From a virus (Duplodnaviria; Caudoviricetes), in the IMG/VR virus record IMGVR_UViG_3300033068_001019, positions 2,391 to 66,390 of that record: a DNA stretch of 64,000 nt; one strand, 5' to 3'. Shown in pieces: positions 1 through 27,812 of the stretch. How positions within the stretch are numbered: the first letter of the stretch is position 1; each line of letters opens with the position of its first letter. The translations under genes and the position numbers were made by a program. The notes beneath the pieces were generated by a model. That model was not told the DNA's origin, did not search any database, and saw only the letters and a list, made by a program, of their open reading frames with translations.

Positions 1-1988
1 GCGTCGATCATCAGCATCTGCTCGGCGACGACGATCCGGGCCAGGGCCTGGACCAGGTTCTCGCACAGCAAGCCGCCATAGATCTTCTTGCGTATGTCAC
101 CGGACTGGTAGCTCCACTCGTCCCAGCCCTTGTCACCCATGGCCTTGCGCAGGTCTGGGTACTTCAGGGCCAGACCGTTGGGTAACGCGATGTAGCCGTA
201 GCCGATCTCCAGGCACTTATAGGTGATGGGTTGCGCGCGCTCGTCGGCCATGTGCTCGATCCACTGGGCGCAGGTCTTCCAGCCCTGCTCGATCTTGTTG
301 TTGTTGCGGCGGTACAGGTTGACGATGCGGTGGCATTCCTCCAGGCTGAAGTAGACCTTCGGGCCGCCGAGGGCACCCTTGGCCAGCGTCATTTGGAGTT
401 TGGGGGCTCCCATCTGGAAGCCCAAGCCCAGCACGCAGACCTTGCCAATGAAGCGCTCGAGCTTGTCCTCGGTCGTGATCTCACGTCCATAGACCGAGTC
501 GGCGAAGCGGCAGTAGGCGTCGCGGTTCTCGCCGCGGGCCACGCCCAGGGTCTTGTCCCAGGTGTCGGCCTTGCGAAAGGCGTCGAGCAGGTCGTCCTGG
601 TTCCAGAGCCAACCGTTGACACGGGCTTCGATCTGACCTGAGTCGACGACGGCCATCTGGTGGCCGTCGTCGGCTTCGATGGACAGGCGCAGTTCACCAC
701 CACGGGTGAGGTTCTGCATGTTCATCTTGTTGTTGCCACCCCAGCGCAGGGTGTGCGCGCGGGCATAGGCATAGCCGACTGGCAGCTTCATGCCGTTCTT
801 GCCGGCTTCGAGGAAGCGCTCGGCGCGGGTGATGTTGGTCGTGGACTTGACCGAGATCCGCACGTCGACGAGTTGCTGCAGACGGACTTGCCGGGCGCTG
901 GCTTTGAGCACATCGCCGGCATCCTCGGGGTCGAGGTCGGGGAAGAGTTCCCAGACTTTCTCCGGCAGGTTGACGAAGTCCAGGTCATCCTTGGCGAAGG
1001 CATAGACATACTTCTCGTCGAGCGTGAGGGCTTTTTGCTCGGCGTTGCGCTTGACCCAGGCCGGGCTGATCTTGCGTGGGAGCTGGTCCTCGGTCAGGCC
1101 AGCGGCCATGAGCAGAGCGGCGAACTTGTCGTTGCTGCCGATCACGCGTTTGACGATCAGCATGTCGCGCTCTTCGCCCTGGAGCGCTCGTTCGGCGCCG
1201 GTCTTGAGTGTGGTCTTGTCGTCGTAGTCGCGCGGGTTGAGCACGCTGAGCATCAGCTCTTTACGTGCAGCGATCTCGCGCTCGTACTCGGCTTGGACCC
1301 GGGGGATGTTGACGCGCAGGACCGGTGCGCAGAACATCCGCACGGTCATATGGATCAGCTCGAGTTCGCTGGGTGGATAGACGGCGTGCATTGCCTTGAA
1401 GATGCGGAACATTTCGTCCACGTCGTTGATGCAATACTCAGCCGAACGGCTCCACAGTGGTTTGTCGGCGAACAGTTCCTTGAAGCGCAGCCCCTTCATG
1501 CCCTCGACGCCACCATCGAGCTTGCCCTGGCCGCCATAGTGGATCGACACGTCGTGCAGGCCGGCGCCGATCTCATTGCTGTGCAGGCCGCGGGCCATGG
1601 ACAGGGTGCAGTAATACTTGGCCGGAATGATGCCGTAGTGGTGGCTCAGAATGAAGCCATCGAACTGGGTGTTGTGACACAGCAGGCTGTGGGTTTTCCA
1701 GTTGATCTTGGCCAGCTCGGCTTTGATCTTGGGGCCTGGCACCAGTCGGGTCTTCTTGCCGCCGATCTTGATACCGACCATCAGCGCCTCGAAGCGCGGG
1801 TCCCGGATGTACTCCGAGGTCGACATCTTCTTGAGCGTGTAGTCGGTGTCGTAGTGGGTCTCGAAGTCCAGACTGACCAGGCGATCCCAGTCGATGGGTG
1901 CCGGATCGAACTGGAACTTCGGGGTGGCCTTGGGCGTCAGCAGCGTGGCGACTTTCCTGGATTTTCTTGTGGCGGTGGTCCAGCTCAT
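1..1988 (-). CDS. polA: Family A DNA polymerase (C-terminus runs off the window)
   Basis: Translated by hand from ATG at 1988: exonuclease motifs LDFETHY and HNTQFD, polymerase motifs HTLRWGG, NMQNL, DSGQIEARV, GKVCVLGLGF, ENLVQALAR. Start overlaps the helicase stop (ATGA). Confidence 0.95.
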   Translation of the reverse strand, partial: MSWTTATRKSRKVATLLTPKATPKFQFDPAPIDWDRLVSLDFETHYDTDYTLKKMSTSEYIRDPRFEALMVGIKIGGKKTRLVPGPKIKAELAKINWKTHSLLCHNTQFDGFILSHHYGIIPAKYYCTLSMARGLHSNEIGAGLHDVSIHYGGQGKLDGGVEGMKGLRFKELFADKPLWSRSAEYCINDVDEMFRIFKAMHAVYPPSELELIHMTVRMFCAPVLRVNIPRVQAEYEREIAARKELMLSVLNPRDYDDKTTLKTGAERALQGEERDMLIVKRVIGSNDKFAALLMAAGLTEDQLPRKISPAWVKRNAEQKALTLDEKYVYAFAKDDLDFVNLPEKVWELFPDLDPEDAGDVLKASARQVRLQQLVDVRISVKSTTNITRAERFLEAGKNGMKLPVGYAYARAHTLRWGGNNKMNMQNLTRGGELRLSIEADDGHQMAVVDSGQIEARVNGWLWNQDDLLDAFRKADTWDKTLGVARGENRDAYCRFADSVYGREITTEDKLERFIGKVCVLGLGFQMGAPKLQMTLAKGALGGPKVYFSLEECHRIVNLYRRNNNKIEQGWKTCAQWIEHMADERAQPITYKCLEIGYGYIALPNGLALKYPDLRKAMGDKGWDEWSYQSGDIRKKIYGGLLCENLVQALARIVVAEQMLMID

Positions 1989-3343
1989 GATGCAAAGAGG
2001 TCGAGGAGGTTTTTCATGCGTGCGTTCTTGCTTTGCAGGATTTCGTACACGCGCTCGTCGATCGTTCCAGGTGCCACGATCGTGATGGTCTCGGTCTTAT
2101 TCTTTTGCCCCATGCGGTGTTGCCGCTTGGAGCCTTGCTCGAACAGTTCCAGGTCGTAGGTCGGCGAGGACCAGATCGTGGTGGTGCCACGGGTCAGGGT
2201 CAGGCCGTGGGCCGCTGAACGCGGGTGGGCGAACATCACCTGGTAGCGTCCGGCCTGGTAGCCAGCGACCATGCTGGTGCGTTCGTCGTCGGTGGAGTCG
2301 CCATCGAGCACGCAGAAGGTGATCCCGCGTTTGTCAGCCTCGGCGGTCAGGGCGTCGCGCTGGTGCTTCCAGTGGAAGAACACCAGGCTGTGCTGACGTT
2401 CCTCGACCAGATCCAGGATCATCTTGTAGCGGCCGTCGTCGACCAGCACCATGCCTTCGGGGCCGTAGACCGCGCCGCTGGCGATTTGCAACAGCTTGCC
2501 GGCCACGACGGCGGCGTTGACGGCGGTGATGAGCGCGCCGGTCTTCTTGACCTCCAGCATCTGGGTCTGTTCCATCTGGTCGTAGGCTTTGCGCTGCTTG
2601 GGGGTCAGCTCGTACTCCAGGGTGTAGCGGTGGTTGGCTGGGATGTCGACGCAGTCTTCGAACTTGTGCCGGATCACGATGTCCTGCAGCAGGCCGAACA
2701 CGGCTTCTTCGGCGCCGTCCTTGTCGGCCCACTGGATGGCATTGGTGCTTTTGCCGACCTGTGTAGGTTCGCAGACGGCGTTGCGGAAGGCATAGAAGCT
2801 ACTGCCCAGGCGTTTGCCTTCGTCCAGCAGATAGACCTGGTGCCACACATCGGTGATGGAGCGGCCGTTGGGTGTACCGGTCATGGCGCGGCGGTACTTG
2901 AAGTGCTTGGCGATCTTGGCCATGGCACGGCTGCGCTGGCTGGTGTGGTGCTTGTAGGCTGATGACTCGTCGATGACCAGTGTGTCGAACTTGTCGAAGA
3001 AGCCCTTCTTTTGCTGGGCCAGCCACTTGGCGGCATCCAGGTTGGTGACATACACGTCAGCTTCCTGGGCGAAGACTTCGCCGCGGTCGGCTGCCGTGGC
3101 CACGGCGACCTTCAGGTTGGGGGTGAACTTCTTGAAGTCGTTGAACCAGGTGCTGCGCAGCAGGGTGCGTGGAGCCAGTACCAGGGCGCATTTGCCTTTC
3201 TTTTTCGTCCGACGATAGTCGAAGTCCCAGGCTGCTACGGCAGTCTTGCCAGTGCCAGGGTCGCTGCAGTCATAGACTATCGGGGTGGTCTTGGCGTGGG
3301 TCAGCGATTTCTTCTGGTGGGCGAATGGGGCAGGCTTGGTCAT
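1985..3343 (-). CDS. SNF2-family helicase
   Basis: Walker A DPGTGKT, DESS box, MTGTP, HGLTLT, RQHRMGQ; start moved to MTKPAPFAHQ. Confidence 0.92.
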   Translation of the reverse strand: MTKPAPFAHQKKSLTHAKTTPIVYDCSDPGTGKTAVAAWDFDYRRTKKKGKCALVLAPRTLLRSTWFNDFKKFTPNLKVAVATAADRGEVFAQEADVYVTNLDAAKWLAQQKKGFFDKFDTLVIDESSAYKHHTSQRSRAMAKIAKHFKYRRAMTGTPNGRSITDVWHQVYLLDEGKRLGSSFYAFRNAVCEPTQVGKSTNAIQWADKDGAEEAVFGLLQDIVIRHKFEDCVDIPANHRYTLEYELTPKQRKAYDQMEQTQMLEVKKTGALITAVNAAVVAGKLLQIASGAVYGPEGMVLVDDGRYKMILDLVEERQHSLVFFHWKHQRDALTAEADKRGITFCVLDGDSTDDERTSMVAGYQAGRYQVMFAHPRSAAHGLTLTRGTTTIWSSPTYDLELFEQGSKRQHRMGQKNKTETITIVAPGTIDERVYEILQSKNARMKNLLDLFAS

Positions 3344-3536
3344 AGACGGCAATCCTTTCGAGGGCCTCGGTGCGGTTATTGCTGATGTACTCGACACTCC
3401 ACATCTCAGGGATGCCAGCAGTGAGCACGATGGCTTCATGCCCGAGCAGCCGGGCTGTGGCGAGATCCAGGGTGAGCTGTGGGCCGTATCGGCGTTCGAG
3501 GTCGCGCAAGTGCTGGCGACGCTGCTTCGAGTTCAT
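3270..3536 (-). CDS. Hypothetical protein
   Basis: ORF from MNSKQRR fills the gap between exonuclease and helicase but overlaps the helicase start. Confidence 0.4.
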   Translation of the reverse strand: MNSKQRRQHLRDLERRYGPQLTLDLATARLLGHEAIVLTAGIPEMWSVEYISNNRTEALERIAVYDQACPIRPPEEIADPRQDHPDSL

Positions 3537-3728
3537 GGTGTCCTTCGAGCGCAAGAGATGTTGGGGTCCCGGCATGTGCGTTCCCTGGCCGGGGCAAGGT
3601 GGGGAGGAGTGATTGGGCGAGGTATGGAAGGCGAGTACCTCGGCAGGCCCTTTCATTTACCTGTGGCTTTTCGACGCACCTACTTCGACACAGGTCAGTC
3701 ATCCCGCTCTGCCGGCAGGACGCGGAGA

Positions 3729-4472
3729 TCATTTGCGCTTGGGTTTGGCTCCAGGCAGGCTTTGGACGCCGACCTGGCATTGACCGCCGTTCCAGGGGCC
3801 GTACTGGCACCACTTGCAGGAATGGACGTTGGGGTTGGGCTCCCACTTGGTGCAGGTGGTGAGCTTGTGGCCGCGCCGGTCGAAGTTGCTGCGGTATTTG
3901 AGACCCTTCTCACGCATGAAGGACACGCTGGTCAGGTTCTCGCCGGGCTTCTGGTCCAGATACCAGAGCTCGGCGTTGACATGCTCCAACTTGGGGTAGC
4001 GCATGAAAGAGACGAGTTGGTAGAGGTTCAGCTGTTCGCCGTGCTTGATCTCGTTGCCGAACTTGCGCCCGGTCTTGAAGTCGATCACCGTGGCGTGGGT
4101 CTCGCTGTGGAAGACGATGGCGTCGAGCTTGAGGCGCAGCCAGGCGGTCTTCCAGTCGGCGACTTCCCAGTCGCGGTTCATGCCCCATTCGCCCTCGAGG
4201 CTGACCAGGCCGTCGGCGTGCAGCACGCGCAGCAGGTCGATCTGGGGGCCAAAGTGCAGAGCAGCTTCGGGGGCGAGGGTGTTGGAGGTGCCGTTGATGT
4301 ATTCCTCGCACGACGTGTGGATGCGGGTGCCGCGGTCGTTGGCATGCTCGGTCTTGCCCGGGGGCAGGGGCCGCTCGGGCTCGGGGATTTTTTGGTCGTG
4401 CTTCAGCCAGCACAGGAACTTGCAGGTCTCGAAGTCCTGCAGCTTGCTGAAGGACCAGCTGTTGATTGCCAT
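3729..4472 (-). CDS. Cas4/RecB-like PD-(D/E)XK exonuclease with Fe-S cysteines
   Basis: SWSFSKLQDFETC, LKLDAI...IDFKTG, QLNLY, C-terminal CKWC...C. Confidence 0.88.
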   Translation of the reverse strand: MAINSWSFSKLQDFETCKFLCWLKHDQKIPEPERPLPPGKTEHANDRGTRIHTSCEEYINGTSNTLAPEAALHFGPQIDLLRVLHADGLVSLEGEWGMNRDWEVADWKTAWLRLKLDAIVFHSETHATVIDFKTGRKFGNEIKHGEQLNLYQLVSFMRYPKLEHVNAELWYLDQKPGENLTSVSFMREKGLKYRSNFDRRGHKLTTCTKWEPNPNVHSCKWCQYGPWNGGQCQVGVQSLPGAKPKRK

Positions 4473-4510
4473 ATCGTTTCTCGTTTCTTTGTTCGTTCGA
4501 CGACAAACGA

Positions 4511-5008
4511 TTATGCACCAGTCGGAGCCAGCCGTGGGCGCAGATCGGGGCTGTTGAGCTTGTCGTAGTGACAGTCGATGGTTCGCACCGGGCGAGCCAA
4601 TTCGTAGCCTTCTTCACCAAAGTCTTCGGATTCGATGTCGTCGTCGTTTTCGCCGATGCGAACGAAGGCACCGCACAGGAAGGCCTCGGGGCTGTCTGGC
4701 TCACATTCGGAATACAGCCCCTCGAAGTGCTGGTAGATGTGGGTGTGGGCTTGAACGTCTGGGTAGGCCTTAAACCACTTCCAGTGCGTGCCGCCCGCAC
4801 CCAGGATGGCGACGGCGGCATCTATGCAGGTCAGCTTGGTGTCGGTTGGCGTTGCCATGAACGTAATGGGTACGTCGTCCATGACTTTCCATTCGTCGAG
4901 GACTTCCTTCGTGATGTCGTCGCCGTTCAGGCGCAGGGCGGCGAACTCACGCAGAATAATTTCCTTGGGGCCGCGCACGACTATACGGACGTTGGATTCG
5001 TAGCCCAT
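4511..5008 (-). CDS. Hypothetical protein
   Basis: 165-aa ORF with phage-like codon use, in operon context. Confidence 0.7.
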   Translation of the reverse strand: MGYESNVRIVVRGPKEIILREFAALRLNGDDITKEVLDEWKVMDDVPITFMATPTDTKLTCIDAAVAILGAGGTHWKWFKAYPDVQAHTHIYQHFEGLYSECEPDSPEAFLCGAFVRIGENDDDIESEDFGEEGYELARPVRTIDCHYDKLNSPDLRPRLAPTGA

Positions 5009-5023
5009 GATCCATGTCTCCTA

Positions 5024-5293
5024 TCAGGTGTAGAGTGGATAGATACCGGTAAGCCGGTAGGTAAGCGCATCGATCGGTTCGACGAAGACGATGTTGGGGC
5101 AGGCGGAGTAGCCTGACGTTGCGAGCTCCCTGCTGTTTGGGCACTCGTTCGAGTATTTGCGTGCTTTGTTGACGTGGCTGTGGTCACGGTCGCGATCAAA
5201 CTCTCTGGAAAACACACAGCTGTTGCAGGGGGGATAATCCCGCGGAACGGGCAGCGCAACGACCTCGCGGCCCTCGACGATGCGTTTATCCAT
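5024..5293 (-). CDS. Small Cys-rich protein, paralogue 1
   Basis: MDKRIVEGREVVA...CNSC...C...C...FVEPIDALTYRLTGIYP; termini nearly identical to the adjacent gene. Confidence 0.75.
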   Translation of the reverse strand: MDKRIVEGREVVALPVPRDYPPCNSCVFSREFDRDRDHSHVNKARKYSNECPNSRELATSGYSACPNIVFVEPIDALTYRLTGIYPLYT

Positions 5294-5537
5294 GGTGTTT
5301 CTCCGAGGCCTTGTAGACCGGATAGATACCCGTGAGCCGGCCGGTGAGCGCATCGATCGGCTTGACGAAGAAGACGCCCAGGCAAGGTATGCTGTCCTCG
5401 ATGCTGTTCTTTATCGGGGCGCAAGGTAGCTTCCCACGAGTGGAGAACAGGCAGTGCTGGCAAGCCGAAACCGAAAATCCTGCGGCTTCTATCGGGATAG
5501 CAACGACCTCGTGACCCTCGACGATGCGCTTGTCCAC
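5286..5537 (-). CDS. Small Cys-rich protein, paralogue 2
   Basis: GTG start; MDKRIVEGHEVVA...CQHC...C...C...FVKPIDALTGRLTGIYP. Confidence 0.75.
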   Translation of the reverse strand: MDKRIVEGHEVVAIPIEAAGFSVSACQHCLFSTRGKLPCAPIKNSIEDSIPCLGVFFVKPIDALTGRLTGIYPVYKASEKHHG

Positions 5538-5538
5538 G

Positions 5539-6675
5539 TCACACCTCGATCTGGATGGTCTCGCCGATCTGAGCGATCTGCCCGGAGGTGCAGCACCAGA
5601 GCACCGGGAAGTCGGCGCTGCTGGGCTGTGGGCCGTAGAGGTCGGTCAGGTAGATCAGGCATTCGGGTTGGAGGCCTTGCGTTTCGATGTGCTTGAACGG
5701 CGGGCGGAAATCGGTGCCGCCGCCGCCGCACATCTCGAACTTCAGTTCGTCATGCGGGTCGTAGGCGTCGATGCGGTTGATCTCGGCGTCGCAGTAGATG
5801 ACGTGGGTCTTGATGGGGCGCACGGCCGATACCAACGCCTTGATCTCGGAGCCGAAGACGCTGAGCGTGTGCTGGTCGATCGAGCCCGAGGTGTCGATAC
5901 AGACCACGATCTCGCCCATGTTCTCGGACCAGAGCCCAGGCAAGTAGACGCCGGCCGACAGGTAGCGCCGGTTGGGGCGCGACCAGCTGTAGTCGTCCTT
6001 GCTGATCTGGGTGATGAACTGGCGCAGTTGGTCGCGCCAATTCACCTTGGGCGGAGCGGTGATCTCTTCGACGAAGCGTTGCAGAGCGCCGGGAAGCTGA
6101 CCCTGGGCCTTGGCGGCGTTGACGGCCTGCACGGTTGCGAGCTTCCAGTCGACGCTGGTGTGTTCTTGGTCGGCAGGATCGCCGTCCATGATCTCATCCA
6201 GCGGAGAGCCGACGCTGTCTTCGTTGCCAGAATCGTCGCCATTGTCTTCCGGCAGCAGGTTGTAGATCTGGTCTGCCGTCATGTCGCGATAGGCGGGGTT
6301 GATCAGCCAGCTGTCGCCGATCTCGAAGCCGGAGTCTTGCAACACCAGGTTGATGGCGAAGTCGCCGGCTTGGTTCCATCGACGGGGGCTGCGATTACCG
6401 CGCCGACCGATGTGCTCGAAGACACAGTGCATGACCTCGTGGGCTATCGCGCTGCGGGTCAGGCTGTCGGTCAGTTCGTTGACGACGAAGTCGGGGTTGT
6501 AGAAGCAGTGCTTGCCGTCAACCGCCAGGGTCTGGATGTTGTGCCGCTCGACCAACTTCAAACGAAGCGCGAGCATGCCGAAGAAGCCATGGCCCTTGTT
6601 CAGCAGCAGCTGAGCGCGGGCGATGGTCAGCTTCTTGAGTGCGGCGGCGCTGTTGGGGCTAGAGGGTTTGGTCAT
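5539..6675 (-). CDS. DUF2201-type metallopeptidase fused to a vWA domain
   Basis: HEVMH zincin motif, MIDAS DTSGS, GGGGTDF, YLTD. Confidence 0.9.
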   Translation of the reverse strand: MTKPSSPNSAAALKKLTIARAQLLLNKGHGFFGMLALRLKLVERHNIQTLAVDGKHCFYNPDFVVNELTDSLTRSAIAHEVMHCVFEHIGRRGNRSPRRWNQAGDFAINLVLQDSGFEIGDSWLINPAYRDMTADQIYNLLPEDNGDDSGNEDSVGSPLDEIMDGDPADQEHTSVDWKLATVQAVNAAKAQGQLPGALQRFVEEITAPPKVNWRDQLRQFITQISKDDYSWSRPNRRYLSAGVYLPGLWSENMGEIVVCIDTSGSIDQHTLSVFGSEIKALVSAVRPIKTHVIYCDAEINRIDAYDPHDELKFEMCGGGGTDFRPPFKHIETQGLQPECLIYLTDLYGPQPSSADFPVLWCCTSGQIAQIGETIQIEV

Positions 6676-22873: not shown

Positions 22874-23227
22874 ATGAGCTGCCCCCGCTTCATCGCCGAG
22901 AGCATGGCCCTGCGCACCGCCGCGCACCTGGCCCACCTCACCACCACCTCTTACGCCCAACACGTTGCTCTGAGCGACTTCTATTCGTCCCTCGTCGAAC
23001 TAGCTGACAGCTACGCCGAGGTCTACATGGGCCTCAATGCCCGCATCGAGAGCTTCCCCGTCGTGCAGACCCCGCGCGGCGACATCGTCTCCAACCTGGA
23101 AGACTACCTCGAGGTCGTGCGCGATGAGCAGAAGGAAGACCATGGCTCCGAGGCCCTGAAGAACATCCTCGCCGAGGTCGAAGAGCTGACGGCTCGGACT
23201 CTTTACAAGCTCCGAAACCTGAAGTAG
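22874..23227 (+). CDS. DUF5856 / ferritin-like four-helix protein
   Basis: HLTTTSYAQHVALSDFY...DSYAEVYMG...ILAEVEELTARTLYKL pattern. Confidence 0.7.
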   Translation: MSCPRFIAESMALRTAAHLAHLTTTSYAQHVALSDFYSSLVELADSYAEVYMGLNARIESFPVVQTPRGDIVSNLEDYLEVVRDEQKEDHGSEALKNILAEVEELTARTLYKLRNLK

Positions 23228-23234
23228 GCCCATC

Positions 23235-25388
23235 ATGCCCATCGACACCAAGATCGCCACCAAGCAGTGGGTCCGGTACGCCTGGGCCCGAGACAATGGC
23301 CATGCCAAGTACGTCGAGAAGGCTGAGAAATGCGACGCCTTCTTTCGCGGCGACCAGTGGGACCGGGCTGACAAGATTGCCCTCGAACGCGTGCGCCGCC
23401 CGGCCATGACGATCAACAAGATCCTCTCGACCATCAGCAACGTGATGGGCGAGCAGATCTTCAACCGCGCCGAGGTGAGCTTCCGCCCGCGCAGCGGCTC
23501 GCCGGCCGAGACCGCTGAGATCCTGACCAAGGTCTTCAAGCAGATCAGCGACAACAACCAGCTCGACTGGAAGCGCAGCGATATGTTCGCCGACGGCATC
23601 ATCACCAGCCGTGGCTTCCTGGACGTGCGGATCGACCACAGCGACTCGATGCAGGGCGAGGTCCGCATCGAGAGCCTGAACCCGAAGAACGTCATCATCG
23701 ACCCGGACGGCGAGGAGTACGACCCCGACACCTGGGGCGAGGTCTTCACGACAAAGTGGGTCACGGCCGACGACATCGCGGTGCTCTACAACGAGGAAGA
23801 CGCCGAGCTGCTGCGCAACCGCGAGCAGAGCTACTTCCCCTACGGCTACGACTCGATCCAGGCCTATCGCGACCGCTTCGGCGACCGCTTCAACCCGATG
23901 TACACGGGCGACTACGACAACAGCAACGTGATGCGCAACATCCGGCTGATCGAGCGCCAGTATCGCGAGCTCGACCGCCAGAAGCACTTCGTGAGCCCTG
24001 AAACGGGTGACATGCGCGCCATCCCGGCGGACTTCGACCGCGACCGTATTTCGTTGTTCGTCGAACGGTTCGGCTTCCAGGTCACGACGAAGCTGGTGCG
24101 CCGCATCAAGTGGACGGTGATCGCCGACAACTGCGTGCTGCACGACGACTGGAGCCCCTATAAGCACTTCACGGTCGTGCCCTACTTCCCGCACTTCCGC
24201 CGTGGCACCACGATCGGCCTGGTCGAGAACCTGACCGGTCCGCAGGAGGTGCTGAACAAGGTCACGAGCCAGGAGCTGCACATCGTCAACACGACGGCCA
24301 ACAGCGGCTGGAAGGTCAAGGCCGGCGGCCTGGTCAACATGACGGTCGAGGAGCTGGAAGAGAAGGGCGCCCAGACCGGCCTGGTGGTCGAGGTCACGGA
24401 CCTGGATGCCATCGAGAAGATCCAGCCCAACCAGACCCCGCAGGGTCTGGACCGCGTCAGCTACAAGGCCGAGGAGAGCATCAAGACGATCTCCGGCGTG
24501 TCCGACTCGATGCAGGGCTTCGACCGCGAGGACGTGGCCGCCAAGGCGATCGAGAAGAAGCGCCAGGCCGGCAGCACGAACCTGGCCAAGCCGCTGGACA
24601 ACCTCACCCGCACCGACTTCATCCTGGCGCGCAACGTGCTGGATCTGGTCCAGACTTTCTACACCGAGGAGCGCATCCTCACCATCACCCACGACCAGGT
24701 GACGGGCGACACCGAGGACTTCACGATCAACCAGGTCACGCCCGAAGGCACCGTGGTCAACGACCTGACCGTCGGCGAGTACGGCGTGGTCGTCACTTCG
24801 GTGCCGGTGCGCGAGACGCTGGAGGACAGCCAGTTCGAGCAGGCCGTGGCCCTGCGCGAACTGGGCGTGGCCATCCCCGACGCCGTGCTGATCGACTCCA
24901 GCCGCCTGATGAACAAGAAGGACATCATCCGCGAGATGCAGGGCAGCCAGGACACCCCGGAGGCGCAGGCCCAGCGCGAGCTGCAGCAGCGCGCGCAGCA
25001 GGCCGAGGTGTCCAAAGCCGAAGGCGAAGCCGCCCAGAAGCACGCCGACGCGCAACTCAAGCAGGCCAAGGTCCAGGAGACCATGGTCAACACCCAGATC
25101 GCTGCCCAGGGCGAGCCGGACGACGGCTCCGGGCAGGCGAAGATGGCCGAGGCCGAGATCAAGGCTGGCCAGGCAGAGCATGAAGCGTCCCTGAAGGAGC
25201 GCGAATTTGAGCGTGACACACAGCTCGCGATGATGGAGTTCGGGCTCAAGCGCGAACAACAGCAGAACGAGCTGCGCCTCAAAGCGCACCAGATGGCCGC
25301 GGACCGAGCAGACCGCCGCGCACAGATGACAGCCCAAGCAGCGGCGGCTGCACAGCAACCGCAACAACCCGCGAAAGGCAACCCATGA
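23235..25388 (+). CDS. Portal protein
   Basis: 717 aa after TerL; FFRGDQW, RPAMTINKI; helical C-terminal barrel typical of podoviruses. Confidence 0.88.
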   Translation: MPIDTKIATKQWVRYAWARDNGHAKYVEKAEKCDAFFRGDQWDRADKIALERVRRPAMTINKILSTISNVMGEQIFNRAEVSFRPRSGSPAETAEILTKVFKQISDNNQLDWKRSDMFADGIITSRGFLDVRIDHSDSMQGEVRIESLNPKNVIIDPDGEEYDPDTWGEVFTTKWVTADDIAVLYNEEDAELLRNREQSYFPYGYDSIQAYRDRFGDRFNPMYTGDYDNSNVMRNIRLIERQYRELDRQKHFVSPETGDMRAIPADFDRDRISLFVERFGFQVTTKLVRRIKWTVIADNCVLHDDWSPYKHFTVVPYFPHFRRGTTIGLVENLTGPQEVLNKVTSQELHIVNTTANSGWKVKAGGLVNMTVEELEEKGAQTGLVVEVTDLDAIEKIQPNQTPQGLDRVSYKAEESIKTISGVSDSMQGFDREDVAAKAIEKKRQAGSTNLAKPLDNLTRTDFILARNVLDLVQTFYTEERILTITHDQVTGDTEDFTINQVTPEGTVVNDLTVGEYGVVVTSVPVRETLEDSQFEQAVALRELGVAIPDAVLIDSSRLMNKKDIIREMQGSQDTPEAQAQRELQQRAQQAEVSKAEGEAAQKHADAQLKQAKVQETMVNTQIAAQGEPDDGSGQAKMAEAEIKAGQAEHEASLKEREFERDTQLAMMEFGLKREQQQNELRLKAHQMAADRADRRAQMTAQAAAAAQQPQQPAKGNP

Positions 25389-26443
25389 ACCCGCTCCTGA
25401 AAGCCCTGATGCGCCGCCTGCAAGCCCCGATGGACGGCGACGGCAACGACCTGGGGGGTGGCACACCCCCCGACCGTGGCGACGACTTCACCCCCACCGA
25501 CGACGAGCCGGCTACCAAGACGCCCGAACCCAAGCCGGCCGCCGCGAAGCCGGGCGAGGCCAGCGACCCCGATGCTGACCCCGATGCTGACCCCGATGCC
25601 GACCCCGACGCCAGCGGCGACCCCGACCCCGATGCGGACCCCGACGCCGAGGCAAAGGCCAAGGACGAACCCAAGAAGAAGGACCAGCGCATCCCGCTGT
25701 CCCGCCACAAGGAAATGCTCGAGAAGGAGCGCGCCAAGCGCGCCGAACTCGAGCAGAAGCTGCAGCAGTACCAGCGCGGCAGCGACGTGGCCGAACTCAA
25801 CGAGAACATCACCAAGGCCGAGGAGCGCATCCTCGGCATGGAGAAGGAGTACGCCAAGCTCCTCGCCGATGGTGAAGTCGAGAAGGCCACGACCCTGATG
25901 GGCCAGATCCGCCAGATCGAGCGCCAGATGTCCGAGGCCAAGAGCGACATGAAGATCGCCGCCGCCGAGGCGCGCGCAACCGAGCGGGCGCGCTACAACA
26001 TCGCGCTCGAGCGCATCGAGAAGGCTTACCCGCAGCTCGACCCCAACGGCGACGAGTACGACGCCGAGCTGATGCAGGATGTCGTGGACCTGAAGGCGTC
26101 TTACGAGGCACGTCGTGGTCTGACCCCGACCGACGCCATGCAGAAGGCTGTCGAGAAGCTGGTCGGCGCGCGCACCGCGACACAGAAGAAGGTCCTCGAC
26201 ACCACGCCGCGCGTCACCGAGAAGGACGTGGCGGAGGAAGTCAAGGCTGAGCGCAAGAAGGAAGCCGTCAAGAAGACCCTCGAGGCCGTGGGCAAGCAGC
26301 CGCCCAGCGCCGCCAAAGTGGGCCTGGACAGCGACAAGGCTGGCGGCGCCCTCACGCCGAAGGACGTGCTGAAGCTCAGCCAGGACGACTTCAGCAAGCT
26401 CAGCGACGAGATGCTCGCCCGCCTGCGCGGCGATGAACTGTGA
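25385..26443 (+). CDS. Scaffolding protein
   Basis: Acidic DPDA repeats, RIPLSRHKE, coiled coils; sits between portal and capsid. Confidence 0.75.
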   Translation: MNPLLKALMRRLQAPMDGDGNDLGGGTPPDRGDDFTPTDDEPATKTPEPKPAAAKPGEASDPDADPDADPDADPDASGDPDPDADPDAEAKAKDEPKKKDQRIPLSRHKEMLEKERAKRAELEQKLQQYQRGSDVAELNENITKAEERILGMEKEYAKLLADGEVEKATTLMGQIRQIERQMSEAKSDMKIAAAEARATERARYNIALERIEKAYPQLDPNGDEYDAELMQDVVDLKASYEARRGLTPTDAMQKAVEKLVGARTATQKKVLDTTPRVTEKDVAEEVKAERKKEAVKKTLEAVGKQPPSAAKVGLDSDKAGGALTPKDVLKLSQDDFSKLSDEMLARLRGDEL

Positions 26444-26802
26444 AGGACACGACCATGATGCACATACCTTCTCCCTTGCCCAAGACCACCGACGAGTGGC
26501 TGGAGCTCAAGATCCAGGCCAAGGGTCTGAACGCACCGCGCGTGACCCCGGCCGACCTCGACGCCAACATCGTCCACACCGAGATTGTCAAGCACGTCAG
26601 CCACAGCGGTCAGGTGCTGCGCTGGGCGGTGCTGACGACGCGCAATGGGTTTGCCGTCACCGGCCGCCCATCCGCAAGCGTATCTGCGGAGAACGACGAC
26701 GCCGAGACCGGCGAAGAAGTGGCGATCGAGAATGCCCGCAACGAGCTCTGGCCCCTCATGGGCTACGAACTGCGCAGCAAGCTGCACCAGGAGCAAGCAT
26801 GA
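26440..26802 (+). CDS. N4 gp49/Sf6 gp66-family protein (Acb4-like sponge candidate)
   Basis: RVTPADLDANI...LTTRNGFAVTG..SASVSAENDDAETGEEVAIENARNELWPLMGYELR. Confidence 0.75.
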   Translation: MKDTTMMHIPSPLPKTTDEWLELKIQAKGLNAPRVTPADLDANIVHTEIVKHVSHSGQVLRWAVLTTRNGFAVTGRPSASVSAENDDAETGEEVAIENARNELWPLMGYELRSKLHQEQA

Positions 26803-27233
26803 ACCACTACATCGGCACCAAGATCGTTCGCGCGGAGCCCATGACGCGCCAGACCTACAACGACTTCCGCGGCTGGACGCTGCCGGCCGACGAGGACGGC
26901 GCGGACGAGGGCTACCTCGTTGAGTACCTCGACGGCGGCAAGCCGAACGTCCCGACCCACGCCGGCTACGTCAGCTGGAGTCCGAAGGCACAGTTCGACA
27001 ACACTTACCGCGTGCTCGGCAGCCTGACTTTCGGCATGGCTCTCGAGATGCTCAAGAAGGGCCGTCGCGTCGCACGCGCCGGCTGGAACGGCGCCGGCCA
27101 GTTCGTCTTCCTGATGCCCGCCATGTCGCCGTACCGCGCTTACCTGGCGCTGAAGACGGCACAGGGCGACATCGCCACCTGGGCGCCCAGCTGCAGCGAT
27201 GCACTGGCCGAGGACTGGACCATCGTGGAGTGA
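26799..27233 (+). CDS. tad2: DUF2829 / Tad2-like protein with an extra N-terminal YIGTK domain
   Basis: LTFGMALEMLKKGRRVARAGWNGAGQFV...WAPSCSDALAEDW. Confidence 0.8.
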   Translation: MNHYIGTKIVRAEPMTRQTYNDFRGWTLPADEDGADEGYLVEYLDGGKPNVPTHAGYVSWSPKAQFDNTYRVLGSLTFGMALEMLKKGRRVARAGWNGAGQFVFLMPAMSPYRAYLALKTAQGDIATWAPSCSDALAEDWTIVE

Positions 27234-27237
27234 CGCC

Positions 27238-27459
27238 ATGAGCCAGTACCAACCCCACGAACAGCGCGTGATCGACGAGAAAGCCGATCTTGACGCTCGC
27301 GCCGCCAAGCTGGCGGTGTTCCTGAATGGCGAGGTCTTCGCCGGCCTACCGCTGGTGGACCAGCAGCTCCTGGCGCTCCAGCACGATGCCATGGGTGCCT
27401 ACAGCTACATCCTGGGCGAGCGCATCGCGCGCTTCAAGCCCGTCGAGGTGCAGCCGTGA
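27238..27459 (+). CDS. crAss001_48-related helical hairpin protein
   Basis: PHEQRVIDEKADLDAR..KL..F...Q..AM..YS.ILGERIARF. Confidence 0.7.
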   Translation: MSQYQPHEQRVIDEKADLDARAAKLAVFLNGEVFAGLPLVDQQLLALQHDAMGAYSYILGERIARFKPVEVQP

Positions 27460-27695
27460 ACGCCTTCGACTCCGCCCTCATACCCTCCGAGGCCGACGAT
27501 CCGAACGTCTGGCGTCTTCGGGGCCGGATCTCCGAGATCACGCAGGCGATCGACAAGGAGAACGCCACGCTGAGCAACCTCAATGAGGAGGCCACGCGCC
27601 TCGAGAACAAGCGGCGCTGGGTCCGCGAGGCGGTTGGAGCCCTGGAACTCGAGAAGTCGCTGCTCCAGGCCTGGATCAACACCACCCAGAAATAA
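27456..27695 (+). CDS. Coiled-coil hypothetical protein
   Basis: 79 aa; GTGA overlap with the upstream gene. Confidence 0.7.
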   Translation: MNAFDSALIPSEADDPNVWRLRGRISEITQAIDKENATLSNLNEEATRLENKRRWVREAVGALELEKSLLQAWINTTQK

Positions 27696-27722
27696 CGGCT
27701 TGCCATGGGTCGTTGCGGCCCT

Positions 27723-27767
27723 TGACCTCGTTTGTCGTTCGACGAACGAGGTCTTTTTTCGTACACT
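27723..27767 (+). repeat. 45-bp terminator/promoter/operator unit, copy 1
   Basis: GACCTCGTT...AACGAGGTC stem plus T6; TCGACG-17-TACACT; 41/45 identical to 28243-28287. Confidence 0.85.
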
Positions 27768-27812
27768 TGCCGAGGCGCCGCCGGCGCCACCCAACCAACC
27801 ACCGAGGTAACT

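Follow-up and report, generated by a model that had tools for sequence, protein, structure and literature searches.

Why would a tailed phage carry a row of small genes that have no evident part in building a virion at the end of its scaffold gene? The question is raised by the head-gene region of the IMG/VR record IMGVR_UViG_3300033068_001019, from an uncultured tailed phage of about 66 kb; the analysis was computational, and the window is the whole stretch of 64,000 nt that was analyzed. Four small open reading frames (ORFs) on the + strand, g1 to g4 (26440-27695), are packed directly 3' of the scaffold gene. The first belongs to the Acb4 family, the second joins an unclassified N-terminal domain to a Tad2-family domain, and the third belongs to the Sequestin family, all three being families of phage sponges that sequester immune signals; the fourth is an orphan. 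Our results suggest that this cassette is probably anti-immune-signaling cargo located at the 3' end of a late portal-scaffold operon.

The sequence-only reading of this DNA had described four tightly packed small genes, and four ORFs are indeed present in this interval. They follow a scaffold-like gene of 352 aa (25385..26443, + strand, as are all features given here), an ORF that comes after the portal gene and before the capsid gene and for which no Pfam match above the cut-off was found; it carries the cassette at its 3' end, and its homologs are positioned likewise in 74 related loci. The start of g1 (26440..26802) is ambiguous: a GTG at 26440, which overlaps the scaffold stop codon as GTGA, would give 120 aa, and an ATG at 26455 would give 115 aa, the latter being the likelier start because a well-spaced AAGGA lies 7 nt upstream from it. 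The g2 gene (26799-27233) begins in an ATGA overlap with the g1 stop codon, g3 (27238..27459; 73 aa) starts 4 nt past the g2 stop codon, and g4 (27456..27695; 79 aa) overlaps the g3 stop codon as GTGA; each of these three is preceded, at a distance of 5-7 nt, by a Shine-Dalgarno-like purine-rich stretch. The in-frame GC content at third codon positions is 0.83-0.93 for g1 to g4, similar to that of the genes for the portal, scaffold, and capsid proteins; in g4 the value is 0.88 in frame versus 0.61 and 0.42 in the other two frames. All four thus have the codon usage of the phage itself and are credible as genes. A megablast search of window positions 23000-31000 against sequenced phages returned no match.

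The g1 protein matches PF13876 over the complete profile (positions 1-82 of 82; E 6e-17, 62.4 bits, cut-off 27) and phrog_322 with an E value of 2.7e-41. PF13876 is the family of Acb4, tetrameric sponges for the cyclic dinucleotides of the system for antiphage signaling based on cyclic oligonucleotides (CBASS) (Chang et al., bioRxiv 10.1101/2024.12.30.630793), so that the anti-CBASS family named for g1 from the sequence alone is confirmed by that work. The structure of SPO1 Acb4 is available as 9E4W. A direct match between g1 and PDB sequences was not obtained, and 9E4W is linked to it only through gp48 of phage N4, which is 31% identical to g1 and itself matches both PF13876 (E 9e-35) and 9E4W.

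The C-terminal domain of g2 (residues 77-144; 27027..27233) is a Tad2-family sponge domain. Residues 77-143 match PF11195, the former DUF2829 that Pfam now labels "Tad2-like," at an E value of 2.2e-21 and 76.6 bits, far above the cut-off of 25, which bears out the earlier equation of DUF2829 with Tad2. The domain also matches the solved Tad2 structures 9EIB (E 1.2e-20), 8V3E (E 1.4e-20), and 8SME (E 4e-12). The AlphaFold2 (AF2) model of g2 has a predicted local distance difference test score (pLDDT) of 95; its Tad2 part superimposes on 9EIB with a Z score of 13.0 and a root mean square deviation of 1.2 Å over 70 residues and on 8KBI with a Z score of 12.7, and a Foldseek search gave an E value of 1.6e-7. 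The nearest solved relative is ModTad2 (MoTad2; 8V3E and 9EIB) from a Myroides odoratus prophage, which is 63% identical over 70 residues but is without the 73-residue N-terminal domain of g2.

The g3 protein matches PF21825 (crAss001_48) over positions 2-61 of 61 (E 2.1e-18, 66.4 bits, cut-off 24.8). The sequence-only reading had proposed it as a candidate new sponge; the family has since been published as Sequestin, a sponge for 3' cyclic ADP-ribose (3'cADPR) that blocks type I Thoeris (Tal et al. 2025, bioRxiv 10.1101/2025.07.12.664507), so it is not new. In SequestinA, R8, E12, Q47, and R61 are predicted ligand contacts, and the replacement of E12, Q47, or R61 by alanine, but not that of R8, abolished anti-Thoeris activity (Tal et al.). 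By inspection, R10, E14, Q48, and R62 of g3 correspond to these residues, with spacings of 4, 34, and 14, compared with 4, 35, and 14 in SequestinA and 4, 34, and 14 in SequestinB. No relevant match of g3 was found among PDB sequences. The check by profile hidden Markov models (HMMs) that had been suggested for PF11195, PF13876, and crAss001_48 thus gave matches far above the curated cut-offs for all three.

Acb4 proteins are homotetramers with four interfacial nucleotide pockets; Tad2 proteins are homotetramers that sequester glycocyclic ADP-ribose (gcADPR), histidine-ADP-ribose (His-ADPR), or cyclic nucleotides; and Sequestin is an antiparallel dimer that binds 3'cADPR. As members of these families, g1, the C-terminal domain of g2, and g3 would each be expected to form a small homo-oligomer, and the pockets at the subunit interfaces would bind and sequester the nucleotide second messengers of CBASS, Thoeris, or Pycsar-type (pyrimidine cyclase system for antiphage resistance) defenses, with the predicted consequence that the host effectors are never switched on. 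The overlapping stop and start codons couple the translation of g1 to g4 to one another and to that of the scaffold gene, and by this coupling the operon is the unfused equivalent of the multidomain sponge fusions of other phages.

Comparison with related phages shows the cassette to be optional cargo, and the interval from the scaffold gene to the capsid gene, in which it lies, to be a hot spot specific to this lineage. The related loci were the best 80 of hundreds of IMG/VR capsid relatives (capsid 73-93% identical), and gap statistics were taken from the 74 that have both the scaffold and the capsid genes. In these, the scaffold and capsid genes are separated by a gap of 179 to 4521 bp. Of the 74 loci, 33 have Acb4, Tad2, the extra domain (the N-terminal domain of g2) plus Tad2, or more than one of these in the gap, in varying order, and 27 carry other cargo; the gap is shorter than 400 bp in 14, including the closest relative (L003, 93% capsid identity). 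Sponge genes are thus the most frequent recognizable cargo of a hot spot that lies inside the head-assembly operon. In five related loci, it is instead the interval from the portal gene to the scaffold gene that holds Acb4 or tandem Sequestin, and Comamonadaceae prophages that are more distant but share the head module are mostly without cargo at the hot spot. The extra domain plus Tad2 is found in the hot spot of L016 (4322-5277) and of L040 (5228-5737). In one of these two, Acb4 follows rather than precedes the extra domain plus Tad2, and the cassettes have so been assembled or shuffled independently.

Other genes seen at this hot spot include one for an 899-aa protein without a Pfam match (L007, L010, L014, and L053, at 3135-5834), a pair coding for a 722-aa protein of unknown function and a GDSL-lipase-like protein (L064, at 1582-5298), and a GIY-YIG/NUMOD3 homing endonuclease gene (L034, at 4279-5034). 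The nearest genome-bin relatives are labeled Proteobacteria, Verminephrobacter, and Azoarcus; the host is likely to be a betaproteobacterium.

A terminator-like hairpin with a 13-bp stem and a T run lies at 27723..27767 (stem 27724-27753) and forms the first copy of a 45-bp repeat. In the scanned stretch, a strong terminator-like hairpin with a T run occurs only after g4, and the terminator scan found no comparable hairpin from the portal gene to g4; the cassette therefore appears to form the 3' end of the portal-scaffold transcription unit. Because the cassette is coupled to the scaffold gene and the terminator follows g4, it is likely that the sponge genes are coexpressed with the head proteins.

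Several points weigh against our reading of the cassette as anti-signaling cargo. With respect to g1, the cyclic GMP-AMP (cGAMP) contact residues of SPO1 Acb4 (K36, F48, E49, V56, Y57, F62, N63, I66, T70, and K81) were mapped from 9E4W via N4 gp48, through two pairwise alignments. Among the mappable contacts, g1 keeps only the equivalent of F48, the guanine-stacking phenylalanine; it differs at the equivalents of E49, Y57, F62, N63, I66, and T70, K36 and K81 could not be mapped, and the adenine-pocket and backbone contacts are different. N4 Acb4, which prefers cyclic di-AMP (c-di-AMP), is nevertheless a working sponge though it differs at most SPO1 contact positions, so these residues set specificity and not membership, and the ligand of g1 is not one that membership in the Acb4 family can name. 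With respect to g2, the Tad2 domain is without about 16 loop residues that ModTad2 has, which may alter a predicted ligand pocket. The shortened loop lies at window positions 27100-27135 (g2 residues ~105-112), between the FLMPA strand and the YRAYLALK strand. More generally, the ligands of Tad2 homologs vary widely, and about one-quarter of the assayed sponge homologs blocked none of seven defense systems. The timing is a further point, as characterized sponges have been reported to act early or to lie in replication-side islands: the activity of SPO1 Acb4 appears early (Chang et al.), and the published N4-like hot spot lies on the replication side of the genome (Fedorova et al., bioRxiv 10.64898/2026.06.04.730250). 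A position in a late head operon is unusual in this respect, and late expression could come too late for blocking signaling. As a conjecture, the head-operon position might reflect the triggering of signaling defenses, including CBASS, by late structural proteins.

The first 73 residues of g2 (26799..27017), which carry the motif YIGTK...SWSPK, form a highly conserved domain that accompanies sponge families. Such an additional domain on Tad2 had been pointed out in the sequence-only reading and is present; it has no match above the cut-off in Pfam or NCBIfam, and our literature search, which included motif strings, found no publication naming it. The extra domain is widespread, with 1471 cluster representatives (E ≤ 1e-3) and 1783 matches among 90%-identity clusters, and 124 sequenced phages, whose hosts include Escherichia, Vibrio, Klebsiella, Pseudomonas, and Clostridium, carry it. 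In the best 150 representatives (50%-identity clusters), which were used for the conservation and partner counts, it is 58-75% identical to the query; Y20, G38, Y57, W60, and P62 are invariant, 25 further positions are conserved in at least 90%, and K8, R17, and R24 are nearly invariant. Pfam partners in this set were Tad2 (52), Sequestin (39), Acb4 (18), the Acb2/Tad1 hairpin (2), and a WDGH domain (1). With our own domain HMMs, the architectures were extra-Tad2 in 45, extra-Sequestin in 22, the extra domain alone in 11, extra-Acb4 in 7, and Acb4-extra-Sequestin in 5, along with rarer orders; the domain occurs on either side of its partners, and no tandem copies were found among the 150 representatives. 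Other partners were not counted as families, being mostly singletons, some of them probably miscalled ORFs. A further fusion partner, P0207 (residues 131-211), matches Lockin (PDB 9P8L; E 7e-17), and the Lockin and Sequestin tables of Tal et al. include fusions with the extra domain. Of the 80 best viral loci for the extra domain, 76 have it joined to a known sponge family, and 18 have an additional sponge gene within 600 bp. Stand-alone copies make up mostly viral clusters that have 75-114 members and lengths of 67-78 aa.

The isolated extra domain was modeled with AF2 at a pLDDT of 96 as a beta-alpha-beta-beta-alpha fold. Foldseek searches with this model against solved structures gave nothing at E ≤ 0.001. 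The best hit in a wide structural search (VIA) was DUF1653 (3BE3) at a Z score of 3.9, followed by chromo, Tudor, and CarD-type domains at Z scores of about 3, and these matches of the predicted model we treat as reflecting a common small beta-sheet-plus-helix arrangement and no more. A weaker fold match was to a protein of Yersinia phage vB_YenM_TG1 that is annotated with an RyR domain (BFVD A0A0B4ZZN3; Foldseek E 1.2e-2, 36% identity, 59 columns), and the RyR-type domain is a sponge-like family (Fedorova et al.). With Lockin and, on this weaker evidence, RyR-type proteins, the fusion partners go beyond the families that Pfam names. Searches with the domain profile against solved structures retrieved only Tad2 entries, through the fused partners. 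The Lockin structure 9P8L, which is in the searched libraries, was matched by neither the profile nor the model of the extra domain, and Lockin occurs as a partner. The domain is acidic overall, with an isoelectric point (pI) of 5.1 and a conserved acidic loop. Whether by binding a further ligand or by assisting the sponge to which it is attached, the N-terminal domain of g2 most likely plays a direct part in anti-signaling.

That the extra domain is a chromo- or Tudor-like helper or adaptor, which would alter the stability, assembly, or localization of the attached sponge or bind a host or phage macromolecule, is a serious possibility that falls somewhat short of being probable. Its near-constant attachment to a sponge in viral loci favors such a role, as do its acidic surface, its weak fold likeness to modules that bind proteins or peptides, and its pairing with dimers, tetramers, and hexamers, which differ in symmetry; the full-length AF2 model of g2 has a predicted template modeling score (pTM) of 0.81, which may be read as both domains packing together. 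Against a helper, stand-alone copies exist, and a single specific interface between the domains is made less plausible by the placement of the domain on either side of structurally unrelated partners. A protein target is hard to square with such strong conservation in phages whose hosts are distant.

A less expected possibility, to which we give tentative weight, is that the extra domain is a new sponge family, an autonomous module for a further immune signal. The domain shows the fusion signature by which Sequestin was recognized, in a broader form that takes in Tad2, Sequestin, Acb4, the Acb2/Tad1 hairpin, Lockin, and, weakly, the RyR type. The 11 stand-alone copies among the representatives and the separate viral clusters are consistent with autonomy, the absence of tandem copies is expected if the domain adds a distinct specificity, and the conserved aromatic and basic residues in phages of hosts from Escherichia to Clostridium are easier to explain by a small universal ligand than by a host protein. 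The SWSP motif is not in Table S2 of Tal et al., which places the domain outside their set of 124 tested candidates. On the other hand, the acidic character of the domain contrasts with the positively charged pockets of known sponges, no relation to any solved sponge was detectable, the domain was never alone but always fused in the 80 best viral loci, and it was not reported from a structure-guided screen in which short phage proteins were searched for oligomers with basic pockets. It seems somewhat doubtful, then, that the extra domain, including the front half of N4 gp49, represents widespread anti-signaling modules with a ligand of their own; if it did, the cassette would hold four sponge specificities and not three.

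It is very improbable that g1 to g4 are head-assembly or decoration accessories whose sponge-family matches are incidental. In favor of such a role, the interval between scaffold and capsid genes is a classical place for decoration or protease genes, and a Sorek-laboratory preprint describes some sponge homologs with an additional domain resembling phage L Dec (6E3C). Against it, the corresponding interval in the closest relative and 13 others is too short to hold a gene, so that the cassette proteins are dispensable for the capsid, a strong argument against a structural role, and the same families adjoin the virion RNA polymerase gene of N4-like phages, away from the head genes. The preprint in question removed sponge homologs carrying "PF21825 or PDB 6E3C," the latter being the decoration protein Dec of phage L. 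Compared by hhalign with the Dec sequence and with a 41-sequence Dec alignment in three set-ups, the extra domain reached a probability of 0.1-0.9%, below 1% throughout, the alignment being of low diversity, so that a remote relation is possible; 6E3C was absent from all fold-search lists for the domain. A resemblance seen by eye between GYLVEY...SWSPKxxFExxY of the extra domain and GYLFRS...LYMSKTAFEANY of Dec was without statistical support, and the domain is therefore not called Dec-like here.

The anti-signaling reading of the cassette extends less readily to g4. This acidic protein has one homolog, 85% identical, and weak, below-threshold matches to coiled-coil-type families; there was no PHROG match and none above the cut-off in Pfam or NCBIfam, and the closest ESM Atlas clusters, scoring 0.85, are unnamed. 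Adjacency and coupling are the only grounds on which an anti-defense role might be proposed for g4, which we regard as a putative orphan cargo gene.

The placement of the cassette between scaffold and capsid genes, as first described, stands for its upstream side, where it follows the scaffold gene; on the downstream side, a pilin gene that had gone unmentioned intervenes before the major capsid protein gene (28419..29528; PF13252, E 7e-43). This gene (27813..28223) encodes a type IV prepilin of 136 aa with a GFTLLE leader motif and matches to PF00114 (E 2.5e-11), PF07963 (E 5e-9), and TIGR02532. It is bracketed by two copies of the 45-bp terminator-like hairpin element, the second of which (28243..28287) is identical to the first at 41 of 45 positions and lies just upstream from the capsid gene; a promoter-like TTGACG-17-TACACT at 28259-28287 overlaps this second copy. 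The prepilin gene looks like separate, moron-like cargo, apparently inserted by duplication of a terminator-promoter element. Neither it nor g4 was found in the 80 related phage loci, and both are confined to the window in this comparison. Directly after the capsid gene lies a 135-aa gene (29589-29996) that matches only phrog_32685, of unknown function. Its conservation throughout the related loci makes it, rather than the cassette genes, the better candidate for a head accessory.

The three sponge families and islands of this kind have been published, and the core of what is described here is known biology. What this phage contributes is a clear natural case of sponge modules as separate, translationally coupled genes in the same order as in the fused forms, and the location of the island in the head operon with coupling to the scaffold gene. 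This location prompts one to ask if the late production of some sponges is deliberate, together with the structural proteins that trigger signaling defenses. The extra domain is the part most worth an experiment: it is present in the model phage N4, it is unnamed, and it is attached to most of the known sponge families, an association of the same type as the evidence that led to Sequestin.

Among known systems, phage N4 offers the closest parallel to the beginning of the cassette. There, gp48 (Acb4) overlaps the next gene, gp49, which consists of the YIGTK domain followed by Tad2, and the order and overlap are those of g1 and g2. The N4-like anti-signaling hot spot holds Tad2, Tad3, Acb4, and Sequestin and is redundant (Fedorova et al.), and it resembles the region studied here in being a variable island with several sponge families. 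The two differ in location and in content: the N4-like island lies between the primase-polymerase and virion RNA polymerase genes, whereas the one in the window is located 3' of the scaffold gene and before the capsid gene, with coupling to the late head operon, and, beyond the pair shared with N4, contains a Sequestin gene of its own, an orphan gene, and a pilin gene. The setting of g3 recalls the discovery of Sequestin, which came to notice because no other Pfam family is fused to Tad2 and Acb4 as often (Tal et al.); g3 likewise adjoins Tad2 and Acb4 genes but is a separate gene. Fusions such as Acb4-Tad2 of Pasteurella phage Pm86 and Acb4-Sequestin (gp59) of Pseudomonas phage Ab09 combine the same families, so that several signals can be blocked, and Acb4-Tad2 fusions block both CBASS and Thoeris (Tal et al.). 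Fusions that include the extra domain also exist, as extra domain-Tad2-Sequestin and Acb4-extra domain-Sequestin. In contrast to these multidomain proteins, the modules in the window are split over three translationally coupled genes.

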